This document shows, one piece after another, positions 498-20,884 of a DNA stretch of 32,226 nt; within the stretch, counting starts at the first letter, position 1; each line of letters begins with the position of its first letter. The DNA is from Eubacteriales bacterium. Its GTDB lineage: Bacteria > Bacillota > Clostridia > Oscillospirales > CAG-272. The translations under genes and the position numbers were made by a program. The stretch is taken from the NCBI GenBank assembly GCA_045593345.1, contig JAZNWM010000259.1:1-32226 (forward strand). The letters run 5' to 3'. The notes beneath the pieces are model-generated. The model was not told where the DNA came from. It searched no databases and saw nothing but the letters and a program-made list of their open reading frames with translations.

Positions 498-509
498 AAT
501 CTATTCACC

Positions 510-1646: not shown

Positions 1647-1666
1647 TTTTCTATTTCTCCTTGAAT

Positions 1667-2279: not shown

Positions 2280-2915
2280 ATGGCAGACAAAATAATCGAA
2301 GTCAAGGGAATAAACCTACCCAAAACCGAGCTCGGAAGAATCAAAATGGAGAAGCTTCTCGCCTCATCCCAGGAGCTTTTTGCCAAGAACGGCTTTTACG
2401 CTACGTCTATATCGGATATATGTAAGCACGCCGGAACGGCAGTAGGCACCTTCTACATCTATTTTGAGACCAAGACCGACGTTTACAGATACCTTATGGA
2501 AACCTACAAGCACGAGATACGAACCCGTCTTGCGAAGAGTATAGAAGCCTGCGAGAGCAGATACGAGAAGGAGCGTGAGGGCATCAAGTGCTTCATTAAG
2601 TACGCCGTTTCCGAGCCTAACGTATACAACATCATCTGGGGAAGTCTTTCTATAGACCGCCAGATGTTCGTAGACTACTATAAATCCTTTGCAAAAAGCT
2701 ACGCGAGGGCATTGGCTGTTGACGGTGAGGTGACCCTTGCCGACACCGACTCGGTGGCATATATGCTGATGGGAATATCGAACTTCCTCGGCATCAAGGC
2801 GATGATTGAGGGGATGACCGATGATGAAATTGACAAAATGATGGATAATACCGTTATGCCCGCCATTGAAAAGGGGATTTTGACAAAAAAGCCCTGCGAC
2901 GATGAGGATAATTAA
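2280..2915 (+). CDS. TetR/AcrR-family transcriptional regulator
   Basis: 211 aa. The N-terminal TetR HTH reads LFAKNGFYATSISDICKHAGTAVGTFYIYFETKTDVY, followed by a helical C-terminal ligand domain. It is divergent from the MaoC-bcd-etfB operon. Confidence 0.88.
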   Translation: MADKIIEVKGINLPKTELGRIKMEKLLASSQELFAKNGFYATSISDICKHAGTAVGTFYIYFETKTDVYRYLMETYKHEIRTRLAKSIEACESRYEKEREGIKCFIKYAVSEPNVYNIIWGSLSIDRQMFVDYYKSFAKSYARALAVDGEVTLADTDSVAYMLMGISNFLGIKAMIEGMTDDEIDKMMDNTVMPAIEKGILTKKPCDDEDN

Positions 2916-3842: not shown

Positions 3843-3924
3843 CCCCCTCTTTTTCGCATTTTTGTAACAAAAACGGCATACCGTTATGCCGAAACGTGAT
3901 AGGATTCATCAAGAAAGGAAAATT

Positions 3925-4911
3925 ATGGAATCGCTAATTTTCGCATTCAACTCGGTCGCACCGATAATTTTCACCGTTGCTGTAGGCTATTTCCTCAAGA
4001 AAATCGGCCTTATGGACGCAGACCTTTCAAAGAAGGCAAACAAGCTTGTCTTCCGCGTATTTCTGCCCGTAATGCTCTTCCTTAACGTATACGGAATACA
4101 AAGCATTGACTCGGTGGGCTTCGGCTACATTATCTACTCGCTTGTAGCCTTGCTTATAATCTTCGGCGTAGCCGTCCCCACTGTTTTTCTCCTTACTGAT
4201 AAGAAAAAACGCCGCGGAGCTCTGCTGCAGGGTGTGTTTCGTTCAAATTACGCCCTTATCGGTATTCCCCTGGCATCCAGCCTCTTCCCCGGTGAGGGGG
4301 CGGCGGTTGCAACGCTGCTGTCGGCGTTTATGGTTCCCGCCTTCAACATCCTGGCGGTTATCGGTCTTTCTATCTTTAACAACGACGGTGAAAAGCCGAA
4401 TTTCAAGAAGGTTCTGCTGGGCATTGTCAAAAATCCGCTTATTATCGGCATTGTGGCCGGACTTTGCTCGCTGGGTATCAGAGCACTGTTCGTTGAATGG
4501 GACGTATCCTTCAGGTTGTCCGAGATCCCTGCAATATGGAAGACGCTGAATTATCTTTCAAGCATCGCCACACCCCTCGCCCTGCTGGTGCTGGGAGCAC
4601 AATTTGAATTCTCTGCAATTCCCTCTCTCAGGCGAGAGATTATAGGCGGCGTAATAATCCGCAGCCTTATCGTTCCCCTCCTCGGCATCGGAGTGGCATA
4701 TTTTGCCTTTCGCAACAGCTTCGGCGGTGCACAGTTCGCATCGCTCGTGGCAGTTTTCTGCACGCCCGTTGCCGTTTCCAGCGTACCGATGGCACAGGAG
4801 ATGGGGGCTGACGCCGAGCTGGCAGGACAGCTTGTGGTATTCACTACAATATCCTCTGCGTTTACGGTGTTTGTAGCTTCCTTCATATTAAAGGCAGTGG
4901 GGATTTTCTGA
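3925..4911 (+). CDS. AEC (auxin efflux carrier) family membrane transporter
   Basis: About 10 TM segments. The N-terminus MESLIFAFNSVAPIIFTVAVGYFLKK and overall size (328 aa) are typical of the AEC/Mem_trans family. The track start at 3886 adds a hydrophilic MPKRDRIHQERKI; the ATG at 3925 has AAAGGAAA just upstream, so it is preferred. Confidence 0.75.
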   Translation: MESLIFAFNSVAPIIFTVAVGYFLKKIGLMDADLSKKANKLVFRVFLPVMLFLNVYGIQSIDSVGFGYIIYSLVALLIIFGVAVPTVFLLTDKKKRRGALLQGVFRSNYALIGIPLASSLFPGEGAAVATLLSAFMVPAFNILAVIGLSIFNNDGEKPNFKKVLLGIVKNPLIIGIVAGLCSLGIRALFVEWDVSFRLSEIPAIWKTLNYLSSIATPLALLVLGAQFEFSAIPSLRREIIGGVIIRSLIVPLLGIGVAYFAFRNSFGGAQFASLVAVFCTPVAVSSVPMAQEMGADAELAGQLVVFTTISSAFTVFVASFILKAVGIF

Positions 4912-4956: not shown

Positions 4957-4992
4957 GACCGAGTCTGATACGGCTCGGTCCTTTCTTTTTTT
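4957..4992 (+). terminator. Rho-independent terminator after the AEC transporter gene
   Basis: Stem GACCGAG (4957-4963) / CTCGGTC (4974-4980), followed by CTTTCTTTTTTT. Confidence 0.65.
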
Positions 4993-5218: not shown

Positions 5219-5824
5219 ATGAATAAAATAACCTTTAAGCAATATCGAAATATTGACCTTTTCATTTTTGGAGCCCTGCTTATCGTATCCGAGCTGATTG
5301 CCACCCTTGCATCTAACAAATGGTTTGTCGCACAGCCCATCGTAATTTCCACCACGCTTACCTTTATCTGTATCGTGATGATGCGTTGGAGCTGGTTCGC
5401 CCTGATTCCCGCCTGCCTTGGCGGTGCGGTATTCTGTATCGCGTCGGGAGCGAGCCCTGAGCAGTATCTCATCTACTGTGCAGGCAACTGTGCCGCACTT
5501 GTTGCCATGGTATACTTCAGAATCTGGGGTAAGGCCGGTGCGAGGAGCAGCAGAACCAGGCTGTTTATCTTCGTCGCAACTGCATATCTGTCGATGCAGG
5601 TCGCAAGATGGCTTCTGTCACTTCCCTTCGGCGGCAGGCTTGATACTCTGCTCGTCTATCTCGGCACAGATATTATCTCTCTGCTCTTTGCGGCGGTTGT
5701 GGTGATACTGATGAAAAATACCGACGGTATGATAGAGGATCAGAGGGCCTACCTCTTCAGGCTTCAGCGTGAGGCCGAGGCTAAAGGGCCAAATGACGGA
5801 TACGGCAATAACGGAAATGAATAA
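5219..5824 (+). CDS. Polytopic membrane protein (5-6 TM), family not recognised; first gene of the pectin-oligosaccharide operon
   Basis: 201 aa, hydrophobic throughout (LFIFGALLIVSELIATLA, IVISTTLTFICIVMM, FALIPACLGGAVFCIA and others) with a charged C-terminal tail. The permease gene follows after 47 nt on the same strand. Confidence 0.6.
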   Translation: MNKITFKQYRNIDLFIFGALLIVSELIATLASNKWFVAQPIVISTTLTFICIVMMRWSWFALIPACLGGAVFCIASGASPEQYLIYCAGNCAALVAMVYFRIWGKAGARSSRTRLFIFVATAYLSMQVARWLLSLPFGGRLDTLLVYLGTDIISLLFAAVVVILMKNTDGMIEDQRAYLFRLQREAEAKGPNDGYGNNGNE

Positions 5825-5871: not shown

Positions 5872-6933
5872 ATGAAAAAATTAGCATCCGATTATCTTGT
5901 GTACGACGAGGCCACAGGAAAATATCACGAGGATCCCGAGCAGGCGGTCAGAGATGACGTCGAAAAGCACCATTGGCTCAACGTAGCCCGCATAGTCCTT
6001 AAGGACTGGCGACTCTATCTTATGCTGGTGCCTATGCTGCTGGTATTCCTGTTCTGGAGATATTTCCCGATGTACGACCTTCTTGCCTGCTTCAAGATTT
6101 ATGACCAGAACACCGAGGTAGCAGACCAGTTTTATTCGGGCTTTAACTACTTCATTGAGCTGTTCCAGGGTACCACAGATTTGTCCAAGGATTTCTGGCG
6201 TGCGTTCCGTAACACCTTCGTAATTTCCTTCTACGGACTTTGCTTCGGCTTCCCTATGCCTATAATCATCGCTCTCTTCTTCAACGAGATCAAATCGAAT
6301 ATAGCGAGAAGCGTATATCAGGTTCTTACATATCTTCCCAAGTTTATGTCTACGGTTGTTATGACCACCCTTATTACTATGCTGGTGCGTCAGTCATCCG
6401 GTACGATAGGCGTAGAAATGGGTGTTATCTCAAGATTTCTCTTCAATCTCGGTCTGATTACCGAGGAGGTAGGAAACGCAGGTCTTTTAAATAATCCCGA
6501 TTTCTTCCGAGCAATATATCAGATAAGCGGTATATGGGAAACCGCAGGCTACGATTCCATCGTATTCTTCGCGGCAATAATCGCCATTTCACCCACAAGC
6601 TACGAGGCGGCACAGATTGACGGTGCAGGCAAGATGGCACAGATGAGATACGTTGTGCTTCCCTCTATCCTCTCCACCGTTGTAATTATGCTTATCACCC
6701 GTATCGGCTCGCTGCTTAACGTAGGATACGAGAAGGTTCTTCTTCTCTACAATCCCCAAACCTACATTACCGCAGACGTTGTTTCCACCTTCGCACAAAG
6801 ATACGGTATGGACGTTCCCAAGCTTCAGGGTATATCGTCGGCGGCAGAGATGCTGAACAACGTGGTCGGAATGCTTCTCGTTATCGGAGCCAACACCGTC
6901 GCCCGCAAGGCATCTAACGTTTCACTTTATTAA
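5872..6933 (+). CDS. Carbohydrate ABC transporter permease, LplB/YteP-like
   Basis: 353 aa, 6 TM. The EAA loop reads SYEAAQIDGAGKMAQMRYVVLPSI. GGAGGA RBS 9 nt upstream. A ~45-aa acidic/His-containing cytoplasmic N-terminal extension precedes TM1. Confidence 0.88.
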   Translation: MKKLASDYLVYDEATGKYHEDPEQAVRDDVEKHHWLNVARIVLKDWRLYLMLVPMLLVFLFWRYFPMYDLLACFKIYDQNTEVADQFYSGFNYFIELFQGTTDLSKDFWRAFRNTFVISFYGLCFGFPMPIIIALFFNEIKSNIARSVYQVLTYLPKFMSTVVMTTLITMLVRQSSGTIGVEMGVISRFLFNLGLITEEVGNAGLLNNPDFFRAIYQISGIWETAGYDSIVFFAAIIAISPTSYEAAQIDGAGKMAQMRYVVLPSILSTVVIMLITRIGSLLNVGYEKVLLLYNPQTYITADVVSTFAQRYGMDVPKLQGISSAAEMLNNVVGMLLVIGANTVARKASNVSLY

Positions 6934-6955: not shown

Positions 6956-7846
6956 ATGAAAAGAAAATTAGAAATATCCGAGCTTATCTTTAAAATACTG
7001 TCTTACCTTTTCCTTACGGTGTTTGCAATATGCTGTCTTTATCCCTTCCTTTACGCGGTCTTTTCTGCAATAAGCGGAAGAGAGGCGGTTGAGTACGGAC
7101 AGATCATCCTTTTCCCTAAGGATGTTCAGTTTGAAGCATTTGAGAGTATGTTTAACGATATGATGTTCTGGAACTCATACACCAACACACTCTTTATCAC
7201 CTTCTACGGCACTATTTGGGCAATGCTGGTAGCGATATTCGGTGCTTATGCTTTATCCAAAAAGAGACTTTTGTTCCGCAAATCATTCAACTTTTTCCTT
7301 GTATTCACAATGTGGTTCTCTGCGGGTATCCTTCCCCAGTATCTGAACTACCGTGAGACAAGAGACGTCTTCTATTCTATGGGAATTACCGACGATAAAT
7401 GGCTCGTCGTTATTGCCATGGGTATGGCGGCAATGAACATTATCCTTCTCCGTAACGCCTTCGAGGGTGTTCCCTCCGAGATTGAGGAGGCGGCCATCGT
7501 TGACGGTGCTACCGAAATGCAGGTTCTTACCAACGTTTATATCCCTATGTCCAAATCCACCATTGCAACGGTTGCACTCTTCTTTGCAATCTCCCGTTGG
7601 AACGGTTACTACTGGGCACGTAGAATGATGACCAATGCTAACGAGCATCCCCTTCAGGTATTTATCCGTCTTTCTCTTGAAAAATTCCAGGATCCCGACG
7701 TAATGGGCGGCTGGAATGAGCCCTATGCTGCAGACTCGGCAATTTACGCACTTATCGTCTGTGCAATTATACCTATTCTCGTTATTTACCCCTTCATTCA
7801 GAAATACTTTGCCAAGGGCGTAAATATGGGCGGCGTTAAGGAATAA
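6956..7846 (+). CDS. Carbohydrate ABC transporter permease, LplC/YtcP-like
   Basis: 296 aa, 6 TM. The EAA loop reads EIEEAAIVDGATEMQVLTNVYIPMS. It is adjacent to the first permease. Confidence 0.88.
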   Translation: MKRKLEISELIFKILSYLFLTVFAICCLYPFLYAVFSAISGREAVEYGQIILFPKDVQFEAFESMFNDMMFWNSYTNTLFITFYGTIWAMLVAIFGAYALSKKRLLFRKSFNFFLVFTMWFSAGILPQYLNYRETRDVFYSMGITDDKWLVVIAMGMAAMNIILLRNAFEGVPSEIEEAAIVDGATEMQVLTNVYIPMSKSTIATVALFFAISRWNGYYWARRMMTNANEHPLQVFIRLSLEKFQDPDVMGGWNEPYAADSAIYALIVCAIIPILVIYPFIQKYFAKGVNMGGVKE

Positions 7847-7925
7847 TCCATCGCCCAAATCCACTTCGGTTAGTATCGCATATTATGCGGCTAATAAATA
7901 AAATTTCTTTTTAGGAGGTCCCCCA

Positions 7926-10154
7926 ATGAAAACACGCAAAATCCTCGCACTCCTTCTCGTGCTCGTTATGACAATGAGCTTCGCACTCACAAGCTGTGGT
8001 CTCTTCGACAAGCCCAACCCTCCCGGTCCCGACCAGGGCGGTACAGGTGACGGCGGTACAGGTGACGGCGGCAACGACGGCGGCGACGTTGTAGTTGACC
8101 CCAACCTGGAAAACTACGCAGCAGCTATTGCTCTCGCAAAGGAATGGGGCACAGAAAGCTATCTCTATTATAAGCAGAACGCTTATGACAGACTGATGAA
8201 CTACTGGAAGAACCCCACCAACAACTCTATCGAAGGCTACGTTCTTAACTACGCAGAGGGCACAACCCTCAGAATGGCTACCGGTTACAACAGCAAGTCT
8301 ACCGGTCTGTTCTTCGATGCATCTCAGTTTGAAAAGTACCCTAACGGTATCACCCTTGCAGACGGCGTGACCTATAGTGCAGGCGACCTTAAGCCTACCT
8401 GGGTTGCAGTTTCCAACAAGCTTGGTATTAACTTTGAAAACAAGTATCAGGGTGGATCTGCTTCCAATGAGTTCAAGAGCTGGCAGAGTGATCTCGGCAG
8501 CGTAGATATGGTATCCGGTACCGCTACTCAGCTTTCTGAGTCCGGTGTTGCAGGCAACCTTATCAACCTTGCTGACTACCTCGATGCAATGCCTAACTTC
8601 AAGGCTTACCTTGAGGCTAACCCCATCGTACGTCTTTCCATTACCGGTGACGTTTCTACCGGTGCTATCTACTATTCTCCCTACTTCGACGGTGTTGACG
8701 ACATCGAGCGTATGCCCCTTATGAGAACCGACTGGGTTGAGAAGCTTCTCAACGGTGAGGGTCAGTTCTCCGCATCCGCATCCAAGAACCTTGCAGCAGC
8801 AGTTTACACTCCCTACATGCCCACCAGCGGCAAGGTAGTTGTAGACGCAGCTAACGCTGAGGGTACTGCAGTTATCCAGCTTACCAAGGATTACGATGCA
8901 GCAGGCAACATCATCAAGAATATGAACGATGCTCTTGCAGCAGGCACTGTTACCGGTGTTCAGGCAGTTAATATGCTTCGTGACTACATCGACAAGGCTT
9001 ATAACGGCTACTACGGCACTAACCGTGCTAACCTCTTCATCGGCCAGGATGCAGCTTGGGACGCAGACGAGCTTGTAGCTCTTCTTCGTTGCGTAGTTGC
9101 TAACCCCCAGACTCTCAACGGTACCGAGACAGTTAACGGTCTCTTCTCCAGAGAGGACGACAACAACCAGAGAAGAGTTGATATGTTCCGCTTCGCTGGT
9201 ACTCTCTTCGGCGTTCGTGGCCTTGAGTCCAGACAGGATTACCTCTACGTAGGTGCTGACGGCAAGCTTCACGATGCACGTCAGGAGCAGGATACATACG
9301 TTGCTCTCGCCAGAATGAACGCAATGGTATCCGAGGGTCTTATCTCCTCCTCCTTCGTAAATGGTGAGGACACCGAGACCAAGCTTATGCTTCAGAACGA
9401 CAACGGCTTCATGCACTATGACTACAACCAGACCCAGACCGTCTTCAACGAGACTCACCTCGACGATGGCGAGAAGTATATGGCAGTTATGGTTCCCGTT
9501 GCTCATTGGTTCGACGGCAGCGATCCTAACGGCGTTTATATGAGATTTACCGAGTCCTGGAGATCTGTTAAGACCGACGGTTGGGCAATCTCTAAGGCAG
9601 GTGTTGGTAACGACACTAACAAGCTTAATGCAGCTCTTGCTCTTATCGACTACGCTTACTCCAAGGAAGGTCAGATCCTTATGTCCTACGGTCCTGATTC
9701 ATTCATTAAGACCAATGCAGACGGCTCTTACGTAACCTTCAACTTCAACGGTCAGCAGATGCCCGTTATCGCAGACGCTACCTTCCAGGAGCTTTGGGAT
9801 AAGGCTTCCGGTAACTACACCAACTACGCTCGTCAGTTCCTTGGTTCTACTCTTTCCTTCGTAAAGAGCCAGGCATTCGAGTATCAGTGCACTCACATTG
9901 TTGGTAAGGAGGGTGCAGGTAACATTTCTACCGCTATCGGCCTTGGCCTTATCAAGCATCCTCTTCTTGAGGTTTCTGAGAACTCTTGGTACTCCATCGT
10001 TCCCACCTCTCTTCCCACCAACCAGTCCGAGAACGACGCTATCGCAGACCTTACCAACCTTTCCACCACCGGTAAGTTCTCTCAGTCCAAGGGTAGCGAA
10101 AACCTCTTCGTTGACATCATTCGTTACGGCTTCGAGGCTCTCGAGCAGAAGTAA
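7926..10154 (+). CDS. Extracellular solute-binding lipoprotein of the ABC importer (LplA-like but oversized, 742 aa)
   Basis: AGGAGG RBS 7 nt upstream. The signal peptide plus lipobox reads MKTRKILALLLVLVMTMSFALTSC, followed by a Gly/Asp/Pro linker (PNPPGPDQGGTGDGGTGDGGNDGGD). Its position directly after two CUT1-type permeases supports the call, which rests on context and architecture rather than a diagnostic motif. Confidence 0.75.
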   Translation: MKTRKILALLLVLVMTMSFALTSCGLFDKPNPPGPDQGGTGDGGTGDGGNDGGDVVVDPNLENYAAAIALAKEWGTESYLYYKQNAYDRLMNYWKNPTNNSIEGYVLNYAEGTTLRMATGYNSKSTGLFFDASQFEKYPNGITLADGVTYSAGDLKPTWVAVSNKLGINFENKYQGGSASNEFKSWQSDLGSVDMVSGTATQLSESGVAGNLINLADYLDAMPNFKAYLEANPIVRLSITGDVSTGAIYYSPYFDGVDDIERMPLMRTDWVEKLLNGEGQFSASASKNLAAAVYTPYMPTSGKVVVDAANAEGTAVIQLTKDYDAAGNIIKNMNDALAAGTVTGVQAVNMLRDYIDKAYNGYYGTNRANLFIGQDAAWDADELVALLRCVVANPQTLNGTETVNGLFSREDDNNQRRVDMFRFAGTLFGVRGLESRQDYLYVGADGKLHDARQEQDTYVALARMNAMVSEGLISSSFVNGEDTETKLMLQNDNGFMHYDYNQTQTVFNETHLDDGEKYMAVMVPVAHWFDGSDPNGVYMRFTESWRSVKTDGWAISKAGVGNDTNKLNAALALIDYAYSKEGQILMSYGPDSFIKTNADGSYVTFNFNGQQMPVIADATFQELWDKASGNYTNYARQFLGSTLSFVKSQAFEYQCTHIVGKEGAGNISTAIGLGLIKHPLLEVSENSWYSIVPTSLPTNQSENDAIADLTNLSTTGKFSQSKGSENLFVDIIRYGFEALEQK
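8037..8066 (+). repeat. Perfect 15-bp tandem duplication (GGCGGTACAGGTGAC x2) inside the lipoprotein linker
   Basis: Read directly from the sequence. It encodes GGTGD-GGTGD and is followed by degenerate GGCGGCAACGAC / GGCGGCGAC units. Confidence 0.9.
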
Positions 10155-10208
10155 TTGGTTTTTAGCAAGAATCCATAATTTATCAGCTTAATATCTGATA
10201 AACAATAC

Positions 10209-10233
10209 GGCAGAGGGGATTTTCCCCTCTGCC
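10209..10233 (+). promoter_or_regulatory. Strong GC-rich intra-operon hairpin after the binding-protein gene (no U-tract)
   Basis: A perfect 10-bp stem GGCAGAGGGG / CCCCTCTGCC with loop ATTTT, 55 nt after the stop. It is followed by AAAGCAAAAAAC, not a T-run. Confidence 0.6.
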
Positions 10234-10366
10234 AAAGCAAAAAACACTTTTATAGTTTATTAAAAAATCTAATTCGGTTAAATTTCGCTTATTTATAACT
10301 TATTATAATACACCATTACCCAAATTATTGTGCCGTCGCCCAGCTGACGGCGGATTGGAAATTACT

Positions 10367-10966
10367 ATGTACAGATTACAAATGAAGCTTCAAAGAATAA
10401 TTTCTTATCTCTGCCTTGCGGCTACCGCATTGACCTTTGCATACTCTCTCGGCGTATCCACCGATACATATTTCCTTTACAAGGTCGTTGCAATAAAGGA
10501 AACCTTTAAGGGTGTAGAAATGTTCTACGCTATGCAGCCCTTCAACAAAACCTTTACCGCACTCAGCGTTGTGCTTGTTATCCTGGCTGCATCCTGCCTC
10601 GTGTTCAATAATCACACACGCAGAAGATATTACGTTGCAAATTATTGTACAACTGTTATAAGCTCTGTTGCCAACGTCGGTGTGGCTATCTGGGGACTTA
10701 TAAATGTATTTTATTATAAAGCTATGTTTCTTGCAGTTGATTTCACAGAGCTTACCGATCTGATAGAAACGGCTCCCGAATCGGTATTTATCAGAAACGG
10801 TCTTGACCCCAACAACCTTGCCGGTCCCTACTCTACCTTCTGGTTTGATATTTCCGTCCTGGTGTTCGGTATCCTTGTTCTGATATCTCTGCTTAACGTT
10901 GCAAATATGGTATTCAAGACCGTCCTTATGAAAAAGGAAAAGCAGCTTCTGAAAGGAGAGGAGTAA
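10367..10966 (+). CDS. Small 4-TM membrane protein, unknown family (A)
   Basis: 199 aa from the ATG at 10367; the track ORF begins at a TTG at 10328. There are four hydrophobic segments and a basic turn NHTRRRY between TM2 and TM3. The tail is Lys/Glu-rich. Its stop lies 1 nt before the next ORF. Confidence 0.65.
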   Translation: MYRLQMKLQRIISYLCLAATALTFAYSLGVSTDTYFLYKVVAIKETFKGVEMFYAMQPFNKTFTALSVVLVILAASCLVFNNHTRRRYYVANYCTTVISSVANVGVAIWGLINVFYYKAMFLAVDFTELTDLIETAPESVFIRNGLDPNNLAGPYSTFWFDISVLVFGILVLISLLNVANMVFKTVLMKKEKQLLKGEE

Positions 10967-10967
10967 A

Positions 10968-11453
10968 ATGGCAAATATCGCAGACGTAAAAACCGATAGA
11001 ATGCGTTATACGAAAAATAAAATTTCGGCAAATCTCGCATACGTAGCTATCTTTCTCAACGCACTCTATTTTATCTCTATTTACACATCAGACGTAAGAG
11101 ATTATTATTACAACATTGAAATAGGCGTCTCCATTATCTACAATCTGCTCTTTATGCTGTTCGTATTCCTGTCAAGCGAGGGTGTTAAATCCTATGATAT
11201 GAAGTATTCTATCCTTCTTACAGTAATCGGAGTATTACAGATAGTGCGTATCTTCGGCATTCCTCTCAACGCCTTCTATACCTTTATTGAAATAAAGAAA
11301 AATCAGTATCTCCAGGTTATGGAGCCCCCTCAATTTTATCTTTGCGTTGCATATCTTGTTATTTCGGCAGCCTGTGCTATAACCGGCGGTATTATCGGAT
11401 GCATTAAATCCAAAAAGCTGGCTGAATACGAAAAGACATTAGTACAAGAATAA
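10968..11453 (+). CDS. Small 4-TM membrane protein, unknown family (B)
   Basis: 161 aa with four hydrophobic segments and a charged tail (KSKKLAEYEKTLVQE). It is tightly coupled to the preceding ORF. Confidence 0.65.
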   Translation: MANIADVKTDRMRYTKNKISANLAYVAIFLNALYFISIYTSDVRDYYYNIEIGVSIIYNLLFMLFVFLSSEGVKSYDMKYSILLTVIGVLQIVRIFGIPLNAFYTFIEIKKNQYLQVMEPPQFYLCVAYLVISAACAITGGIIGCIKSKKLAEYEKTLVQE

Positions 11454-11474
11454 TCAGAAAGGATTTTTCTCGGT

Positions 11475-12536
11475 ATGGCTTCTTTAAGTTTGAAAAATCT
11501 AAACAAAATATACGATAACAACGTTCAGGCGGTCTTTGATTTCAACATTGACATTGAGGACGGCGAGCTTATCGTTCTCGTAGGTCCCTCGGGCTGCGGT
11601 AAATCCACAACATTGCGTATGGTAGCAGGCCTTGAGGATATTTCCTCGGGTACGCTTATCATTGACGGTAAGGACGTTACGCAGATGCCCCCAAAGGATA
11701 GAGACGTTGCTATGGTATTCCAGAACTATGCACTTTATGCTCATATGACGGTATATGAGAATATGGCGTTTTCTCTTACCCTGCTTCACGAGGATCCCAA
11801 CGTTATCCACGAAAAGGTTATGGCGGCGGCAGAGATACTCGGTCTTACCGACCAGCTCAACAAGAAACCAAAGCAACTCTCAGGCGGTCAGCGTCAGCGT
11901 GTTGCTATGGGCCGTGCGATCGTTCGTACACCTAAGGTATTCCTCTTCGACGAGCCTCTCTCCAACCTTGACGCCAAGCTCCGCGGAGCAACCAGACGAG
12001 AGATCCTTCTCCTTCACAAGCGTCTCGGTGCAACGATGCTCTACGTTACCCACGACCAGACCGAGGCACTTACTCTTGCCGACAGGATCGTTTGTATGTC
12101 TATGGGCTACGTTCAGCAGATCGGTACTCCCCTGGAGCTGTACGATACCCCCGCAAACGTGTTCGTAGCAAGCTTTATCGGTCTTCCCCCTATGAATTTC
12201 TTTACCGCAACCGTGTCGGGAGATCATCTCGTTCTCGACGGCAGCATTAATGTTCCGTTAAGCGACGAGGAACGCTCACGCCTTGTATCCTATCAGGGCA
12301 AGGAGATCACCCTCGGCGTAAGACCCGAAAATATTGTTAAGGGCTGTGACGTCACCATCAAGGTTAACAACTGCGAGAACCTCGGACAAAGCACGCTTAT
12401 TCACGGTCATATTAACGGTCACAAGGTAACCGCCAAGTTCCGCGAATGGTCTAATTACAGTTACGGCGAGGATATCTCTGTTTCCTTCAACCGTATGCAC
12501 TTCTTTGATAAAGAATCAACCAACGCTATAAGATAA
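11475..12536 (+). CDS. Sugar ABC transporter ATP-binding protein, MalK/MsmK/UgpC type (copy 1)
   Basis: Walker A GPSGCGKST, signature LSGGQRQRVAMGRA, Walker B VFLFDEPLSNLDA and H-loop YVTHDQ. A ~115-aa MalK-type C-terminal regulatory (TOBE-like) domain follows. Confidence 0.92.
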   Translation: MASLSLKNLNKIYDNNVQAVFDFNIDIEDGELIVLVGPSGCGKSTTLRMVAGLEDISSGTLIIDGKDVTQMPPKDRDVAMVFQNYALYAHMTVYENMAFSLTLLHEDPNVIHEKVMAAAEILGLTDQLNKKPKQLSGGQRQRVAMGRAIVRTPKVFLFDEPLSNLDAKLRGATRREILLLHKRLGATMLYVTHDQTEALTLADRIVCMSMGYVQQIGTPLELYDTPANVFVASFIGLPPMNFFTATVSGDHLVLDGSINVPLSDEERSRLVSYQGKEITLGVRPENIVKGCDVTIKVNNCENLGQSTLIHGHINGHKVTAKFREWSNYSYGEDISVSFNRMHFFDKESTNAIR

Positions 12537-12548
12537 GGAAAGGCTGAT

Positions 12549-13160
12549 ATGAAAAACCAGAATTCTAAAAACGTATTTAAGGCATTTGGTGCGTGGATAA
12601 AAGAAAAAGTGCGTAAGTTCTTCGTTGCTCTCAAAAAGAATCCTCAGTCCATTCCTCTTGCAGCACTGCTTATCGCCTTTCTGCAGTATTCACTCAACCT
12701 TACCTACATATCAAACACTACGGCAAAGCTGGTAAGCTCAAGACTTGAGGGTACAAATGCAGGACTTGCAGCATTCGTAACTATGCTTTTAACCATTCTC
12801 TCCTTCGTGTGTATGCTTAATGCTTTCCCGAAGCGTCAGAAGCCGAAGGTTGGTATGATTATCTTAATGATGGTTATGTACGGAGTGATTATTTTCGCCA
12901 ACTGTCACTATCTATCCTGCATTTCTTACGCTCTGAATGTAGAGATCAATCCTAATCCCATCATTATCAGCGGCGGAGAAAACCAGTTTGTTATTACTGC
13001 TCGCGATACCATAACGCTTAACACTGTTCTTATTGTAATCACTATGATTTTCGTTCTTCTTGAGCCTGTGATTGCAAAGCTGCTTAAGAAGATCAAGACC
13101 TCTATTGAGGTTGAGGGCAGCGGAAACATTGCAAGCATCGATATCGCCAGCGAGGACTAA
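12549..13160 (+). CDS. Small 4-TM membrane protein, unknown family (C)
   Basis: 203 aa. A basic N-terminus is followed by four hydrophobic segments, with a basic turn PKRQKPK between TM2 and TM3. The C-terminal tail is acidic. AAGGAAAGG RBS upstream. Confidence 0.65.
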   Translation: MKNQNSKNVFKAFGAWIKEKVRKFFVALKKNPQSIPLAALLIAFLQYSLNLTYISNTTAKLVSSRLEGTNAGLAAFVTMLLTILSFVCMLNAFPKRQKPKVGMIILMMVMYGVIIFANCHYLSCISYALNVEINPNPIIISGGENQFVITARDTITLNTVLIVITMIFVLLEPVIAKLLKKIKTSIEVEGSGNIASIDIASED

Positions 13161-13169
13161 GGACATAAA

Positions 13170-13814
13170 ATGTCAGAAAAAAATACACCAAAGCCCGATA
13201 AGGGCAAAAATGAGTCTAAGCTTCCAAAAATCAACACAAACGCTGTTGACAGGCTCGTAAACGCAGATAAAAAAACCTATCCCAAATCCAATACAGACCC
13301 CGGAAAGAAATACCGCTCCAATGGATTTATTGACAAAATCCCCTCCCCCGTTAAAGCATTGTTTATCAAATTCTGGTTTAACGGTGCGGTATGCTTCTTC
13401 ATCTACTGGGGACTCGGTATGTATATCTGGGACACCCTTGATATGATCGTGGTTCTCGGCTTGGTTATGGGTATGGTCACCGACGTTCTTGTAAACAATG
13501 CTTTTCGTTTCTTCGCAATTACCCCGGATAGCAACAACAAATGGATGCTGTTCCCGAAAAGAAAATTCTGGACGTTCTTCACCAATATGATATATGGCGT
13601 AGTTGTCGTCTGGATTGTTGCGTGGATTTATAACACTGTCAACGTTATACTTAATACACTAAACGGTGTTGACGGACAGATATTTATCGGCGTTGAGCCC
13701 ATACTCTTCGGCGTTCTGTACGTTGCCGTTGATATGCTCTTCATTGGCATCAAGAATCTTCTGATAAAAATCATTAACGACGCTAAAGAAAAGGCTGATA
13801 CTATTTCAAAATGA
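13170..13814 (+). CDS. 4-TM membrane protein with a Lys/Pro/Asn-rich soluble N-terminus, unknown family (D)
   Basis: 214 aa. About 60 hydrophilic residues (MSEKNTPKPDKGKNESKLPK...) precede four hydrophobic segments. Its stop overlaps the GH28 start (ATGA at 13811-13814). Confidence 0.65.
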   Translation: MSEKNTPKPDKGKNESKLPKINTNAVDRLVNADKKTYPKSNTDPGKKYRSNGFIDKIPSPVKALFIKFWFNGAVCFFIYWGLGMYIWDTLDMIVVLGLVMGMVTDVLVNNAFRFFAITPDSNNKWMLFPKRKFWTFFTNMIYGVVVVWIVAWIYNTVNVILNTLNGVDGQIFIGVEPILFGVLYVAVDMLFIGIKNLLIKIINDAKEKADTISK

Positions 13815-15355
13815 TTAATTTACTATTCACCTCATCCACGTCGGCCTGCTTTGAATGGCAGAACGACCTTCCGTACTACAAGGACGGAGAATACGTGATC
13901 TTTCTTGACGGTGAACAGGTATTTTCAGGCGATACAAACGTTTTCTCGCTATTCAACCTGACACCCGAAACCAAATACACCCTGACCTCCCCTTCTCTCG
14001 ACGGAGAGCTGGTGTTTGTCACCAAGGGCGAAAGTGCGGCTATAAACGTACGCGATTTCGGTGCGGTGGGTGACGGTATTACCGACGATACGGTTGCCGT
14101 ACAAACGGCTATTAACTGTCTGCCACGGGGTGCAAGGCTGTATTTCCCCGAGGGAACCTATCTCGTATCACCTCTTTGCTTAAAGAGTCATATTACTCTT
14201 GAAATTCCCGAGGGTGCAAGGCTGCTGGGCTCGCCCGACAGATCAAAATACCCCGTTATCCCCGGTACCACTATTGATATGGTGACGGGCGGCGAGCATA
14301 TGTTCGGCGTATGGGAGGGCAATGCTATTCCTATGCACCAGGCACTTATCTTCGCCGAGCACGCCGATGATATTACCATTGTCGGACGCGGCATCGTGGA
14401 CGGCAACGCACCTGTTGGCGGCTGGTGGATCGACGTTAAGTCTCAGCCCTTCGGCAGACCGAGGCTTATGTTCTTCAACCGCTGTGACGGGGTCCGCATA
14501 CACGGCATTCACGCCTGCGATGCGGCAAGCTGGCAGATGCATCCCTTCTTCTCAAGGAACGTAAAATTCCTCGATATGTTTATCTCCGCCCCCAAGGACA
14601 GCCCCAACACCGATGCCATCGATCCCGAGGCCTGCGACGTCGTTGACATTATCGGCTGTCGCTTCAGCGTTGGTGACGACTGTATTGCCATCAAATCGGG
14701 CAAGATTGACATCGGCAGGAAGTATAAGACGCCTGCCAACCTTCACACCATACGCAACTGCCTTATGGAATTCGGTCACGGTGCGGTCACTCTCGGCAGT
14801 GAAATGGCGGGCGGTGTCACAAACCTTACGGTTCACCGTTGTGTTTTCAGACAAACCGACAGAGGCCTGCGTATCAAGACTCGTCGAGGACGCGGTAAGC
14901 ACGCAGTAATTGACGGCGTAGTATTTGAAAACATCAGGATGGAGGGCGTTATTACCCCCATCGTAATCAATATGTGGTACAACTGCTGCGACCCTGACAG
15001 AAATTCAGAGTACGTCTGGTCGAGAAAGGAGCTGCCCATTGACGAGCGTACTCCCTACCTCGGCAGCTTTACCTTCAGAAATATGACCTGCCTTGACTGT
15101 GAGGCAGCGGCCTGCTATTGCGACGGCCTGCCCGAGCGTCCTATCGACGAGATTACCGTTGAGAACATTCTCTTCACCTTCTCCGAGGATGCGAAGCCCT
15201 CAAGACCCGCTATGCGTGAGTTTATGGAGGAATTCTGTCGCGTGGGAATGTACTTTGACAACGTCAGACGGCTTGTTATCAAGGACGTTACCGTCAAGGG
15301 TGCTGTCGGCGACGAGCTTGTCGCGGATCATATTAGCGAGCTTATCAGAAAATAA
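13811..15355 (+). CDS. Glycoside hydrolase family 28 (exo-polygalacturonase-like), cytoplasmic
   Basis: The pectin-lyase-fold opener reads NVRDFGAVGDGITDDTVAVQTAIN. The GH28 catalytic set is NTDAIDP, GDDCIAIKSG, GHGAVTLGSE and RGLRIKT. A ~75-aa N-terminal FN3-like segment is present and there is no signal peptide. Confidence 0.9.
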   Translation: MINLLFTSSTSACFEWQNDLPYYKDGEYVIFLDGEQVFSGDTNVFSLFNLTPETKYTLTSPSLDGELVFVTKGESAAINVRDFGAVGDGITDDTVAVQTAINCLPRGARLYFPEGTYLVSPLCLKSHITLEIPEGARLLGSPDRSKYPVIPGTTIDMVTGGEHMFGVWEGNAIPMHQALIFAEHADDITIVGRGIVDGNAPVGGWWIDVKSQPFGRPRLMFFNRCDGVRIHGIHACDAASWQMHPFFSRNVKFLDMFISAPKDSPNTDAIDPEACDVVDIIGCRFSVGDDCIAIKSGKIDIGRKYKTPANLHTIRNCLMEFGHGAVTLGSEMAGGVTNLTVHRCVFRQTDRGLRIKTRRGRGKHAVIDGVVFENIRMEGVITPIVINMWYNCCDPDRNSEYVWSRKELPIDERTPYLGSFTFRNMTCLDCEAAACYCDGLPERPIDEITVENILFTFSEDAKPSRPAMREFMEEFCRVGMYFDNVRRLVIKDVTVKGAVGDELVADHISELIRK

Positions 15356-15373: not shown

Positions 15374-16516
15374 ATGCAGGACAATAACGCCTACATAAAT
15401 ATTGACAGATATATTGACCGTCTTATTACCGAGTCCACGCCCGACCTTCCTATATGGAATATTGAGAGCATAAGACAGGGTAAAAAGCCGCACTGGAACT
15501 ACATTGACGGCTGTATGATCACCTCGCTTTTACAAATGAGCGAGATCTCGGGTGATGACAAGTATTTTAAATTTGCCGAGAGCTTTATCGACTACTACGT
15601 AGCTGAGGACGGCAGCATTCTCGGGTATGATATTGAAAAGTACAATCTTGACGATATCAACGAGGGTCGGGTGCTGTTTGAGCTTTATCGCAGGACGGGC
15701 AAGGAAAAATACCGCCTGGCAATTGATAAGCAAAAGGCACAGCTTGACTCCCAGCCCAGAACCAATACGGGCAACTTCTGGCACAAGCTCATTTATCCCC
15801 ATCAGATCTGGCTTGACGGCATATATATGGCTCAGGTTTTCAGTGCACTTTATTCGAGAGAATACGGTGGCGGTGACTACTCTGATATGCTGAATCAGAT
15901 TGAAAATGTAAACAAATATATGCAAGATAAGGACACAGGGCTCTATTATCACGGTCTTGACTGCTCCAAATCTATATTCTGGGCGGATAAGGAAAGCGGA
16001 CTTTCACGCAATTTCTGGCTCCGTTCTATCGGCTGGTTTACCGTTGCACTCGTCGACATAATCGAGATCGTCGGTGAGGGTGAGGCAAAAGAGCGACTTG
16101 GTCGCATCTTCAGTCATCTTATTGATAGCATTACCGCCTTCCGCGACGACAGCGGACTCTATTGGCAGGTAGTGGATCAGCCCGGCCGCGAGGGCAATTA
16201 TCTTGAGACCAGCGGCTCCAGTATGATAGCCTACGCTATGCTAAAGGGTGCAAGGCTGGGGGTTATTGATAAAAAATACGCCTCGCTTGGCAAGGCGACC
16301 TTCGACGGCATCTGCGAGAGATATCTTAAGGTAAGCGACGCGGGTGAGCTTAATCTCGGCGGCATCTGTCTTGTGGCAGGCCTTGGTCCCGAGAACAATC
16401 TCCGTCGCGACGGCTCATACGAATACTATATCTCCGAGCCTGTGGTTGAGAATGATGCAAAGGGAGTTGCTCCCTTCGTGTTATGCTACACCGAGATTTT
16501 AAGGACGAGAGGTTAA
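15374..16516 (+). CDS. Glycoside hydrolase family 105 (unsaturated rhamnogalacturonyl / glucuronyl hydrolase, YteR/YesR-like), cytoplasmic
   Basis: 380 aa of alpha/alpha-barrel type sequence: WNYIDGCMITSLLQM, DDINEGRVLFELYRRTGKEKY, IWLDGIYMAQVF, FWLRSIGWF. No signal peptide. It sits next to GH28. Confidence 0.82.
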   Translation: MQDNNAYINIDRYIDRLITESTPDLPIWNIESIRQGKKPHWNYIDGCMITSLLQMSEISGDDKYFKFAESFIDYYVAEDGSILGYDIEKYNLDDINEGRVLFELYRRTGKEKYRLAIDKQKAQLDSQPRTNTGNFWHKLIYPHQIWLDGIYMAQVFSALYSREYGGGDYSDMLNQIENVNKYMQDKDTGLYYHGLDCSKSIFWADKESGLSRNFWLRSIGWFTVALVDIIEIVGEGEAKERLGRIFSHLIDSITAFRDDSGLYWQVVDQPGREGNYLETSGSSMIAYAMLKGARLGVIDKKYASLGKATFDGICERYLKVSDAGELNLGGICLVAGLGPENNLRRDGSYEYYISEPVVENDAKGVAPFVLCYTEILRTRG

Positions 16517-16520
16517 GTAT

Positions 16521-17381
16521 ATGAAATTAATGATACGTGCCCACGATCTCGGCTGTAAGGGTGAGGGGCGGGTTGCCGATGCGGTGATCAACGCAGGACT
16601 TGAGGGCGTTCAGCTGGTAGCATACAAATGCACCGAGGACGTAAAGTACGAAGAGGGCTTTATCACGAGTGAGCGTGCCGAAGAGATCGGACGTGCTTTT
16701 ACCGACCGCAACCTTCAGATTCCGCTTATCGGAGCGTATTTTAACCCCGTACATCCAAACGAAGAGAAGATCAGCCGCGGTATCGCAGTATTCAAGGACT
16801 ATCTTCGTGTGGCAGGCAATATCGGATGTGAGGTAGTCGGCTCGGAAACGGGCTCCTATAACGGCGATCCCTGGATATACCATCCGATGAACCACTCGGA
16901 CGAGGCACTTGACCGCGTTGTAGAATGCTTCGGCAATCTTGCAGATTACGCCGCATCACAGGGCAAATTTATCGGTATGGAGGGTGCCTTCGGTCACGTG
17001 TGTCACACTCCCGAAAGGCTTCGTGAGGCAATCAACCGTATCGGACGGGACAATATCCGCGTGATTTTCGACCTCTACAACTACCTTGATATTTCAAATT
17101 ACACCAACGCCTACGATATTCTTGACAGGGGACTTTCGCTTTTCGGCGAGCAGATACTTCTCTTCCATATCAAGGATTTCACAGTTGGCGAGAGTAAGCT
17201 TATACAGTGCGGTGTCGGCAAGGGTATACTTGACTATGACCTCATACTGAAAAAAATCTATGAGCACAATCCCGACGCCATCCTCGTTCTTGAGGGTACG
17301 ACGGGTGACGATATAGGATACGCGGTATCCTTCCTACGCAAGAAAATAAACGAAATTAATCAACCTGAAAGGAATGATTAA
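16521..17381 (+). CDS. Sugar phosphate isomerase/epimerase (xylose-isomerase-like TIM barrel)
   Basis: 286 aa. The pattern of beta-strand ends carrying E/D/H residues (VVGSETG, IGMEGAFGHV, VIFDLYNY, LFHIKDF, LVLEG) is typical of the AP_endonuc_2 / TIM-barrel family. The specific substrate cannot be called. Confidence 0.7.
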   Translation: MKLMIRAHDLGCKGEGRVADAVINAGLEGVQLVAYKCTEDVKYEEGFITSERAEEIGRAFTDRNLQIPLIGAYFNPVHPNEEKISRGIAVFKDYLRVAGNIGCEVVGSETGSYNGDPWIYHPMNHSDEALDRVVECFGNLADYAASQGKFIGMEGAFGHVCHTPERLREAINRIGRDNIRVIFDLYNYLDISNYTNAYDILDRGLSLFGEQILLFHIKDFTVGESKLIQCGVGKGILDYDLILKKIYEHNPDAILVLEGTTGDDIGYAVSFLRKKINEINQPERND

Positions 17382-17383
17382 AC

Positions 17384-18472
17384 ATGGCATATCTTTCATT
17401 ACAAGGAATTAACAAAATCTATCCCAACGGATTTCACGCCGTACACGACTTCAACCTGGAGATTGAGCAGGGCGAGTTTATCTGTCTTGTTGGCCCGTCG
17501 GGATGTGGAAAGTCCACTACCCTGCGTATGATTGCAGGCCTTGAGAATATCAGTAAGGGTGATTTCCTTATCAACGGCGTTCGTGCCAACGAGATGGGCC
17601 CCAGAGAGCGTGAGATCGCGATGGTATTCCAGAGCTATGCTCTCTATCCCCATATGTCTGTTTATGATAACCTTGCCTTCGGCCTTACCCTTCAGGGCGT
17701 TGACGATGACGTCATTGAAGAGAAGGTTACTAATATTGCGAGAATTCTCGGTCTTACCGACTATCTGGACAGAAAGCCGAGAGCTCTCTCGGGCGGTCAG
17801 CGTCAGCGTGTTGCGGTAGGCCGTGCCATTATTCGTAAGGTTGGCGTATTCCTTATGGACGAACCCCTCTCCAACCTTGACGCAAAGCAGAGAGTTACGA
17901 TGCGTTCCGAGATTACCGATATTCACAGAAAGGTTGGATCTACTACCATCTACGTAACCCACGATCAGACCGAGGCTATGACTATGGCTGACAGGATCGT
18001 TGTTATGAGGGACGGATATATCCAGCAGGTTGGTACTCCCTACGAGCTTTACTTCAACCCCGTAAATATGTTCGTTGCAGGCTTCATCGGTGAGCCCCCT
18101 ATGAACTTCGTTCGCTCTGTCACTGGTGGCGGTGTGATTAACGCCCTCGGTAGCCGCGTTGAGCTTTCGCATATTCTTTCGGACTCTACCGTAGCGGGAC
18201 TTGAGGGTAAGGAGGTTGCACTCGGCTTCCGTCCCGAGGGTATCCTTCTCGGCGAGCAGCCCGATTCCTACGTATTTGAGGCAACCGTTGACCTTACCGA
18301 GCTTCTCGGTGACAACACCAACGTTTACGTCAGCGTTGGATCGGACAGCCTTATTCTCAAGGTTGATCCCCACGATACACCCAAGCTTGATACCAAGATC
18401 ACCTTCTCCGTTCCCTACGCTAACGCATATCTCTTTGATTGCGAGAGCGAGAAGGTTATTGCAAAGAAGTAA
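17384..18472 (+). CDS. Sugar ABC transporter ATP-binding protein, MalK/MsmK/UgpC type (copy 2)
   Basis: Walker A GPSGCGKST, LSGGQRQRVAVGRA, VFLMDEPLSNLDA and YVTHDQ, plus a MalK-type C-terminal domain. By eye it is roughly 60 percent identical to copy 1 over the nucleotide-binding domain, with a far more diverged C-terminal domain. Confidence 0.92.
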   Translation: MAYLSLQGINKIYPNGFHAVHDFNLEIEQGEFICLVGPSGCGKSTTLRMIAGLENISKGDFLINGVRANEMGPREREIAMVFQSYALYPHMSVYDNLAFGLTLQGVDDDVIEEKVTNIARILGLTDYLDRKPRALSGGQRQRVAVGRAIIRKVGVFLMDEPLSNLDAKQRVTMRSEITDIHRKVGSTTIYVTHDQTEAMTMADRIVVMRDGYIQQVGTPYELYFNPVNMFVAGFIGEPPMNFVRSVTGGGVINALGSRVELSHILSDSTVAGLEGKEVALGFRPEGILLGEQPDSYVFEATVDLTELLGDNTNVYVSVGSDSLILKVDPHDTPKLDTKITFSVPYANAYLFDCESEKVIAKK

Positions 18473-18518: not shown

Positions 18519-18557
18519 AAAAATACAGAATGGAGGCATTCCACATTCTGTATTTTT
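18519..18557. terminator. Bidirectional terminator between convergent operons
   Basis: Stem AAAAATACAGAATG / CATTCTGTATTTTT with an 11-nt loop. A-run and T-run flanks allow it to work on either strand. It abuts the methyltransferase stop at 18557. Confidence 0.65.
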
Positions 18558-19336
18558 TATTTTTCATATTCGTATAATCTATACAGTTTTTTTGATATTC
18601 TGCCTCCGTAAACCCTGCGGAAGACTGCCCTTTCCACACCCGAAAGCTCGTCTATAAGATAATCGGGCGTCATATTGTGCTCGCTGATAAATCTGAGGCT
18701 GCAGTTTTCAAGGCTACGTGGCTCGTCAATACCAAAAACCAGCCTGACGCCTACGTCGTTTATGGGGTTCTTATATTTGGATGCCCTGGCGGCGAAGGTG
18801 GTGTAGCAGTCCATCAGCAAGGACACCCTGATAAATTTCTCTGCTATCCTGCCAAAAAATGCAGAAAGCTCGTCGGGAGAAAGATACATACTTACGCCCT
18901 CCATAATCAAGACGCAGGAGCCCCCGTCGGGAATAGCATCAAGCCAACCATCCTCGCGAATATCGCCACAAATCATTCTGTAGCATTCACTCTCATCAAA
19001 ATGACGCATACGCTCCTCTATTACAGAAGGAAAATCCACGTCATACCACGTTCCGCGGGACATACCAACCCTCGTGGCACGGCTGTCAAGACCGCAGCCA
19101 ACGTGGATTACGGTATGCTCACCCTCGGCCGTCCTGTGACGAACCCACTCGTCAAACACCCGCGACCGCATTCCCATATAAAAGGCAAGCCATTTTGACT
19201 TGGATTTACCCGAAAGCTTAAGCTCCGCACTCTGCCATATCTCCTCCGCCCGCTTGTCATCAAGGATAATTCCCCTCCCGCTGACGTAGGCTTTACCGTA
19301 CAGCGGTATGTATAGTGTTTTGTTTATCTCTGTCAT
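18557..19336 (-). CDS. Class I SAM-dependent methyltransferase, TcmP / leucine-carboxyl-methyltransferase-like (COG3315 type)
   Basis: 259 aa. The N-terminus TLYIPLYGKAYVS and the SAM motif I VIHVGCGLDSR, followed by an acidic loop, are typical of this family. Its start overlaps the GH4 stop (ATGA at 19333-19336). Confidence 0.75.
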   Translation of the reverse strand: MTEINKTLYIPLYGKAYVSGRGIILDDKRAEEIWQSAELKLSGKSKSKWLAFYMGMRSRVFDEWVRHRTAEGEHTVIHVGCGLDSRATRVGMSRGTWYDVDFPSVIEERMRHFDESECYRMICGDIREDGWLDAIPDGGSCVLIMEGVSMYLSPDELSAFFGRIAEKFIRVSLLMDCYTTFAARASKYKNPINDVGVRLVFGIDEPRSLENCSLRFISEHNMTPDYLIDELSGVERAVFRRVYGGRISKKLYRLYEYEK

Positions 19337-20836: not shown

Positions 20837-20884
20837 ATATCCGTAATTAATTTTTCAGCCAAAGGCAGATAGTTGAGGAGCACT

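Follow-up and report, generated by a model that had tools for sequence, protein, structure and literature searches.

A pectin-oligosaccharide uptake operon of gut and rumen bacteria carries five new families of small membrane proteins beside an AlgM1/AlgM2-type ABC importer

Type I ATP-binding cassette (ABC) importers are textbook four-part machines, composed of two permeases and two ATPases plus a binding protein. Importers of the CUT1 type normally use an ATPase homodimer, and two distinct ATPases in one operon are unusual. Other systems that depend on a solute-binding protein, the TRAP and TTT transporters, contain DctQ and TctB, respectively, poorly conserved proteins with four transmembrane (TM) helices and both termini in the cytoplasm (N-in/C-in) that scaffold a larger transport subunit. 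Here we analyzed a stretch of 32,226 nucleotides (nt) from an Eubacteriales bacterium (contig JAZNWM010000259.1), hereafter called the window, in which the genes of a type I ABC importer are accompanied by genes for five small membrane proteins, named A to E. This region belongs to a conserved operon for the uptake of pectin oligosaccharides; the importer type is known, and the five accessory protein families are new.

The alginate importer of Sphingomonas sp. A1 (AlgM1M2SS-AlgQ2, PDB 4TQU) is described with two permeases, AlgM1 and AlgM2, an AlgS homodimer as ATPase and AlgQ1/2 as binding protein, and the acidic uronate chains that it imports are then degraded in the cytoplasm (PMC7055323). 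The system in the window is similar in that its two permeases (P1 and P2) are homologous to AlgM1 and AlgM2, its two ATPases (ATP1 and ATP2) to AlgS, and the presumed substrate is again a uronate chain broken down inside the cell. It differs from the alginate importer by the five additional membrane proteins, by usually having two different ATPases, by a much larger (742 aa) and very divergent lipoprotein, the presumed binding protein (SBP), and by a pectin instead of an alginate context. Because the AlgM-type importer is described without them, A-E are additions to the basic mechanism and do not form part of it. TogMNAB of Dickeya dadantii, a CUT1 importer of oligogalacturonides, likewise consists of two permeases, a MalK-type ATPase and a binding protein (PMC7055323). 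Compared by description and not by sequence, TogMNAB belongs to the same transporter class and has the same presumed substrate class, pectin oligosaccharides, but no accessory membrane proteins are described for it. DctQ and TctB are subunits of secondary transporters and not of ABC importers, and their likeness to A-D is a functional analogy only, for which no homology is claimed. In the literature, we found neither the five proteins nor any ABC importer described as having accessory subunits of this kind.

The five small membrane proteins are strictly co-inherited with the AlgM1/AlgM2-type importer. One genome per species was scanned for relatives of D, which were found in 113 species of gut and rumen bacteria, and 80 loci were fetched from these. 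The order E-P1-P2-SBP-A-B-ATP1-C-D was kept in 57 of 57 reference-genome loci with enough flanking sequence, and ATP1 was located between B and C in every one of them. E was present in all 57, and its invariant position indicates that it belongs to the same set as A-D. The initial annotation of the window had recognized four such proteins wedged into the importer operon; all four are real and the block is conserved beside the importer throughout, but the set has five members, E (5219-5824) having been missed. Homologues of each of the four open reading frames (ORFs) A-D were found in 75-80 of the 80 loci (A in 75, B in 77 and C in 80). Packing of the operon is tight or overlapping, with median gaps of -1 to 35 nt across loci. 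Reading the junctions from the window sequence reproduced those given previously: A and B are separated by 1 nt (TAA-A-ATG), the gaps between B and ATP1, ATP1 and C, and C and D are 21, 12 and 9 nt, respectively, and the stop codon of D overlaps the start codon of a GH28 glycosidase gene as ATGA.

The labels of the 80 loci were mostly Eubacteriales, Clostridia, Lachnospiraceae and Oscillospiraceae, with Christensenellaceae and Erysipelotrichaceae in the minority and a few Sphaerochaetaceae or Coriobacteriaceae. All are apparently assemblies of uncultured bacteria, mostly from herbivore gut, with no cultured isolate evident. The earlier idea of a recurrent accessory module of Firmicute pectin loci is borne out as to recurrence and pectin-related flanks, but the few Sphaerochaetaceae and Coriobacteriaceae loci do not fit the confinement to Firmicutes. 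In lineages of 28-33% GC, three loci (L081, L088 and L090) hold all nine genes in the same order, and the visible part of the contig-limited loci L083, L084, L085 and L091 (48% GC) follows it as well. Short (~180 aa), distant D-like proteins also lie in the module, which is complete in L088 and L090 and visible in its downstream part in L084, L085 and L091. These short proteins were considered as markers of other genomic contexts, and this was rejected, as all five loci long enough to judge contained the same module; a D-like protein outside the module was never seen in any sampled locus. One full module (L069) came from a metagenome-assembled genome (MAG) labelled Corallococcus sp., a myxobacterium; in view of the other hosts of the module, a mis-binned contig is more likely than a true Corallococcus origin.

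The core of the importer is of the AlgM1M2SS/CUT1 kind, with two AlgM1/AlgM2-like permeases carrying EAA loops and a MalK-type ATPase with a regulatory domain. P1 matched AlgM1 (4tqu_M, E=3.4e-62) and P2 matched AlgM2 (4tqu_N, E=3.7e-74), their EAA loops read YEAAQIDGAG and EEAAIVDGAT, and their median identities across loci were 80% and 82%, respectively. ATP1 (median identity 81%) scored above the cutoff of the NCBIfam UgpC-type subfamily and matched MsmX (2.7e-106) and AlgS (3.7e-105) in the PDB. Taken together, ATP1 and ATP2 matched MsmX/AlgS at ~1e-101 to 1e-109, with AlgS at ~1e-101 to 1e-105. An alignment of the two ATPases showed canonical motifs in both. They are 52% identical to each other and each is ~80% conserved across loci, and the presence of two such distinct ATPases in one operon suggests that they form a heterodimeric pair. 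The N-terminus of the SBP is hydrophobic and ends with LTSCG, which we read as a lipobox. The SBP (median identity 72%) had no Pfam match at E<=0.1, and its PDB matches were weak (E ~0.002) and confined to the family-1 binding proteins 5gx8, 5gub and 5xs8; it lies where a binding protein is expected and is presumed to be one, very divergent from known families.

We placed the start of A at the ATG at 10367, a choice supported by an invariant M1 and Y2 across 39 homologues; the TTG at 10328 only marks the beginning of the longest ORF. The lengths of A-D (199, 161, 203 and 214 aa) and their coordinates as first annotated were confirmed. Their topology was predicted from family-averaged hydropathy and the positive-inside rule, and the four hydrophobic segments previously noted in each were found to correspond to four TM helices in the N-in/C-in orientation. 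A, B and C share the layout ascribed to them, namely TM1, an outside loop, TM2, a short basic cytoplasmic turn, TM3, a longer outside loop, TM4 and a charged tail. The turn is invariant and basic in A (RRxYYxxNY); B has the turn SEGxK together with an invariant Arg (R94) inside TM3, and C has the turn FPKRQKP and a basic amphipathic N-tail. The ~60-aa soluble N-terminus reported for D is a basic cytoplasmic tail of 64 aa ahead of the four TM helices, and D has invariant acidic residues within or at the ends of the helices (D91, D105, E176 and D188). Invariant charges inside predicted TM helices are found in B (R94), D (D105 and D188) and also E (R56 and R130), and such buried charges would fit hetero-oligomeric packing.

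Conservation of A-D was higher at TM (0.64) and cytoplasmic (0.62) positions than at outside ones (0.48, p=3.5e-7), which argues for partners in the membrane and cytoplasm rather than contacts with the binding protein. The dN/dS ratio for A-E was ~0.05-0.3 where synonymous sites were unsaturated (0.14-0.28 for A), so that all five are under purifying selection. They change more rapidly than the importer core: median identity to the window was 43-55% for the small proteins versus 72-82% for P1, P2, SBP and ATP1; D is the most conserved of the five. In mirror-tree comparisons, the distances of A and B co-varied after removal of the tree proxy (0.43-0.48, compared with 0.58-0.67 for the P1-P2 control), and A and B probably form a pair. 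In the AT-rich L081 locus, the B homologue (7636-8385) has an extra soluble N-terminal extension of ~100 aa and the E homologue (1601-2407) a C-terminal extension of ~70 aa, both predicted to be cytoplasmic; these extensions of the AT-rich Bacilli lineage might be further docking elements.

None of the five window proteins matched a family in Pfam and NCBIfam scans, and when 140 homologues, 28 for each of the five, were pooled and scanned against Pfam, no Pfam family was matched by more than three members. A weak match of A to ECF_trnsprt (E=0.04) did not recur and was treated as chance. Profile searches against PDB sequences found nothing for any of the five families apart from a match of E to EMC4 (E=0.018), which is at chance level. 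A, B and C had been thought to be possible distant paralogues because of their common layout; this was not supported, since hhalign probabilities were 0.2-11.9% for all pairs among A-E (at most 12%, against 85% for the P1-P2 control) and BLASTP gave nothing significant. The probability was <=2% between A-E and the profiles of P1 or P2, no Pfam match to BPD_transp_1 was found for A-E, and no EAA-like motif was present in their conserved cytoplasmic loops, in agreement with the view that A-D are not extra permeases of the EAA type. The orphan status initially given to A-D thus holds, and by these comparisons A-E are five unrelated, unannotated families with ~22 predicted TM helices in all. The database holds more than 1000 homologues of D. 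The best 120 of these (59-98% identity) are without a Pfam domain, and in the few cases where a name is given it is 'hypothetical protein'; searching exhaustively with the D profile gave 353 clusters at 50% identity. A structure model of D (AF2, pLDDT 70) had no Foldseek match (best E=1.3, TM-score <=0.34), which we regard as a soft negative.

E is a protein of 201 aa encoded upstream of P1, with six long helices (~6 TM), a conserved cytoplasmic C-terminal helix (DGMIEDQKAYLFRL) and 278 homologues in the database. Its AF2 model (pLDDT 82.9, pTM 0.77) was compared with the PDB by Foldseek, and the seven best matches were S-components of energy-coupling factor (ECF) transporters, namely YkoE, ThiT, RibU and FolT, followed by PanT at rank 10 and TmRibU at ranks 22 and 27. 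The S-component matches had TM-scores of 0.46-0.59 with probabilities up to 1.0, while every other match had a TM-score <=0.27. Therefore, E resembles an ECF S-component in its predicted, not solved, six-helix fold, and its size of ~200 aa is also that of S-components. Unlike these, E has no Pfam or NCBIfam match to S-component families and none at E<=10 in the PDB-sequence profile search. Since the sequences of known S-component families also differ greatly from one another, the missing match is weak counter-evidence. Further differences are that the window operon contains neither an EcfT/CbiQ-type protein nor EcfA/A' ATPases, both of its ATPases being of the MalK/UgpC type, and that a conserved cytoplasmic helix at the C-terminus is, to our knowledge, atypical of S-components.

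D is linked to GH28 by gene fusion. A protein of 623 aa (P0377) matched D at residues 3-176 (E=5e-23) and the whole window GH28 at residues 185-620 (E=5e-32). Eleven more full-length fusions of D with a GH28-like domain, 41-69% identical to P0377, were found in four independent sources, giving twelve distinct fusions (P0377 and P0390-P0400) of about 600-676 aa, two of which are named as coming from 'Bacilli bacterium' MAGs. A frameshift artefact in P0377 was considered and ruled out by this recurrence in diverged sequences from independent sources. In L081, the order is ATP2 (minus strand), E, P1, P2, SBP, A, B, ATP1, C and the fusion (10001-12028); L083 starts at P1 and its remainder has the same order, with the fusion at 7303-9174. 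The small proteins of these two loci (GC 31-33%) matched the family profiles at E=1e-9 to 1e-29. Since D is N-in/C-in and the window GH28 has no signal peptide, the fused domain would lie on the cytoplasmic face. The window GH28 (Pfam E=2.8e-33) has intact NTD, GDD, GHG and RIK motifs. In the fused domains, GDD is changed to NLNN, GHG to SKG and RIK to LIK or LVK. With its catalytic motifs mostly lost, the fused domain of the Bacilli lineage cannot be an ordinary hydrolase and is more likely a binder or structural element. The ORF has nevertheless stayed intact in all twelve diverged sequences, and the domain looks like a pseudo-enzyme that is retained for such a role.

GH28 is the next gene 3' of D in 54 loci, whereas ATP2 takes this place in 19 loci. 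The initial annotation placed the block next to glycosidase genes, and GH28 does overlap D in the window, but GH28-GH88-(isomerase) is an optional insert. In 53 of 62 loci, ATP2 is found no more than 5.5 kb 3' of D. In L025 it immediately follows D, in L063 and L065 it precedes E, and six loci of Oscillospiraceae type (L069, L071-L074 and L077) have no ATP2 close to the module. An AraC regulator adjoins the module in 50 of the 80 loci, and a regulator of this type likely regulates it; in the AT-rich lineage, GntR and PucR-HTH regulators adjoin it.

Recurrent neighbours of the module were UxaA, UxaB, UxaC, KduI, a KduD-like SDR protein, pectinesterase, GH4, a GDSL esterase, KdgA and KdgK, and these flanking genes indicate pectin or galacturonate as the substrate. 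By inspection, the GH28 and GH88/105 proteins of the window have no signal peptide, so the breakdown of pectin fragments would be intracellular. The features of the window are listed in Table 1.

Table 1. Features of the operon and its surroundings in the window
Feature	Positions	Strand	Basis or remark
TetR regulator	2280-2915	+	
Cys-rich lipoprotein, no family	2934-3842	+	
AEC-type permease (Mem_trans)	3886-4911	+	
Terminator-like hairpin plus T-run, 3' of AEC permease gene	4957..4980	+	consensus scan
E: small membrane protein, 201 aa, no family	5219-5824	+	Pfam/NCBIfam negative
P1: type I ABC importer permease, AlgM1 homologue	5872-6933	+	Pfam BPD_transp_1; PDB 4tqu_M
P2: type I ABC importer permease, AlgM2 homologue	6956-7846	+	Pfam BPD_transp_1; PDB 4tqu_N
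SBP: 742-aa lipoprotein, presumed solute-binding protein	7926-10154	+	position; lipobox-like N-terminus
12-bp GC-rich hairpin without + strand T-run	10208..10234		directly 3' of SBP gene
A: 199 aa, 4 TM, no family	10367-10966	+	
B: 161 aa, 4 TM, no family	10968-11453	+	
ATP1: MalK/MsmX/AlgS-type ABC ATPase, OB/TOBE regulatory domain	11475-12536	+	Pfam ABC_tran + OB_MalK
C: 203 aa, 4 TM, no family	12549-13160	+	
D: 214 aa, 4 TM, no family	13170-13814	+	
GH28 glycosidase (polygalacturonase family)	13811-15355	+	Pfam GH28
Unsaturated uronyl hydrolase PF07470, GH88/GH105 family, cytoplasmic	15374-16516	+	Pfam E=1.5e-82
Xylose-isomerase-like TIM-barrel protein (sugar isomerase/epimerase family)	16521-17381	+	Pfam AP_endonuc_2 E=3.3e-28
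ATP2: second MalK/MsmX/AlgS-type ATPase	17384-18472	+	
Leucine carboxyl methyltransferase-family gene	18557-19336	-	downstream of operon
GH4 glycosidase	19333-20712	-	downstream of operon
AraC regulator	20873-21679	+	downstream of operon

The terminator-like hairpin 3' of the AEC permease gene is separated from E by 238 nt and is the probable upstream boundary of the operon. The gap between SBP and A is 212 nt and holds the 12-bp hairpin, which may be an mRNA-stability or attenuation element by which the binding protein is made in excess of the products of the downstream genes. A second hairpin of 6 bp (~10332-10353) lies shortly 5' of the start of A, and an Rfam scan of the window gave no match to any RNA family. 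The Cys-rich lipoprotein encoded upstream has 302 aa with ~9 tandem repeats of ~20 aa (approximately C-x-D-x-D/N-x-D-H-x-C-D/E-x-C-G) and no Pfam match; it may bind metal. In the loci most closely related to the window (L001, L003, L004, L006, L008, L010 and L017), this lipoprotein and the AEC-type permease are both kept directly 5' of the module. Long antisense ORFs oppose SBP (7911-9506, minus strand) and ATP2 (17399-18373, minus strand), and a third (96-1664, plus strand) is antisense to an acyl-CoA dehydrogenase gene (510-1646, minus strand). The last, which was the only one scanned, had no family match and faces a well-supported gene on the opposite strand, and we take all three to be shadow reading frames and not genes.

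The genomic context, a single Rosetta-stone fusion and the single-chain models of D and E lead us to infer that A-E may be accessory subunits, assembled in the membrane as a platform that surrounds the importer and connects it with cytoplasmic glycan-processing proteins, a reading to which we give about even chances. It is favored because of the strict co-inheritance, the interleaving with ATP1, the tight packing, the ability of AlgM-type importers to work without such proteins, the D-GH28 fusion and the conservation facing the cytoplasm. A-E would be stoichiometric subunits packed around P1/P2, touching the ATPases and glycan-processing proteins through conserved turns and tails on the cytoplasmic side. 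D would keep the GH28 protein at the transporter's opening to the cytoplasm, where long acidic oligosaccharides might be captured or trimmed as they emerge, as in a transport metabolon or ratchet, and E, given its S-component-like fold, could be a further subunit or an element that binds a small ligand. A more specific form, in which the AlgM-type pair and five obligate small subunits, one with the ECF S-component fold, make up an importer supercomplex with heterodimeric MalK-type ATPases that couples polyuronate import to capture or hydrolysis by docked GH28, is possible but rather doubtful. Several observations weigh against the accessory-subunit reading. Anchoring of an enzyme needs one TM helix and not 16-22, D persists in 19 loci without an adjacent GH28, and the fused GH28-like domains mostly lack the GDD, GHG and RIK catalytic motifs. 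The position of ATP1 among A-D and not beside P1/P2 also fits a separate unit driven by ATP1. Apart from A-B and the P1-P2 control, the mirror-tree signals were unstable between locus sets; those of ATP1-D and ATP1-E, seen with 49 loci, weakened with 32 loci and were not used. In addition, the models cover D and E alone, and that of D is only moderately confident (pLDDT 70).

A separate unit of this kind would make A-D, with or without E, a second and independent translocator energised by ATP1, specifically an ECF-like one with E as the S component and A-D standing in for EcfT, while P1, P2 and SBP would use ATP2 or a shared MsmX-type ATPase. The model of E, which resembles ECF S-components and nothing else, and the constant embedding of ATP1 between B and C would fit such a unit, as would the usual presence of two distinct conserved ATPases (52% identical) and the fact that Firmicute CUT1 importers often share an MsmX ATPase. 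Nevertheless, both ATPases are of the MalK/MsmX/AlgS type with a TOBE domain and not of the EcfA type, no EcfT/CbiQ-like protein or EAA-like coupling helix was found in A-D, the model of D matched neither EcfT nor an ABC transmembrane domain, and no S-component family is matched by the sequence of E. Moreover, ATP1 is the sole local ATPase for P1/P2 in the six loci where ATP2 is not nearby (L069, L071-L074 and L077), and we consider an independent translocator quite improbable. Alternatively, the small proteins may serve the pathway in the membrane apart from the transporter, as anchors or chaperones of enzymes (D for GH28), as sensors or anti-regulators feeding AraC, GntR or PucR, or as exporters of by-products. 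The fusion ties D to an enzyme and not to the permeases, regulator genes are repeatedly found beside the module, with AraC in 50 of the 80 loci and both GntR and PucR-HTH in AT-rich loci, and the conservation of A-D is concentrated on the cytoplasmic side. However, the invariant order interleaved with ATP1 is kept across phyla while GH genes and regulators vary, D persists without adjacent GH28, and A-E have no recognisable sensor, DNA-binding or enzymatic domain, which leaves a role apart from the transporter unlikely.

The DUF624 proteins YesL, YesV and YteU, multi-pass membrane proteins of ~200 aa in pectin/rhamnogalacturonan ABC operons of Bacillus subtilis, were brought up in the initial annotation, and A-E could be very divergent members sharing the role of that family, in which case they would not be of a new kind. 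Their similar size and similar placement would agree with this, as does the position of E as the first gene of the operon. However, none of A-E matched the DUF624 model (PF04854) at E<=1, nor did the 140 family members at E<=0.01, and NCBIfam gave nothing. The five families, which co-occur in a fixed order, are mutually unrelated, so that at most one could be DUF624-like; the relationship is very unlikely. That A-D are chance hydrophobic frames or decaying gene remnants would agree only with the absence of database annotation, the sources naming them 'hypothetical protein', and is refuted by length, order and sequence conserved in at least 80 loci, by dN/dS of 0.05-0.3, by the invariant motifs and by the confident AF2 model of E, so that its probability is negligible.

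If the five extra proteins are subunits of the importer, as the accessory-subunit reading holds, they would be new subunit classes for a very well studied transporter family, and if the supercomplex or metabolon form is true, it would be a notable extension of the architecture of ABC importers. The module is widespread, with at least 113 species-level genomes and several deep lineages carrying it. Five unannotated ('hypothetical') protein families are now defined with a clear genomic signature, and the link between D and GH28 is testable. The nine-gene signature is a possible marker of pectin-oligosaccharide uptake in gut and rumen metagenomes, and the system would, if the reading is true, provide Gram-positive fibre degraders with a route to import long acidic pectin fragments for intracellular enzymes.

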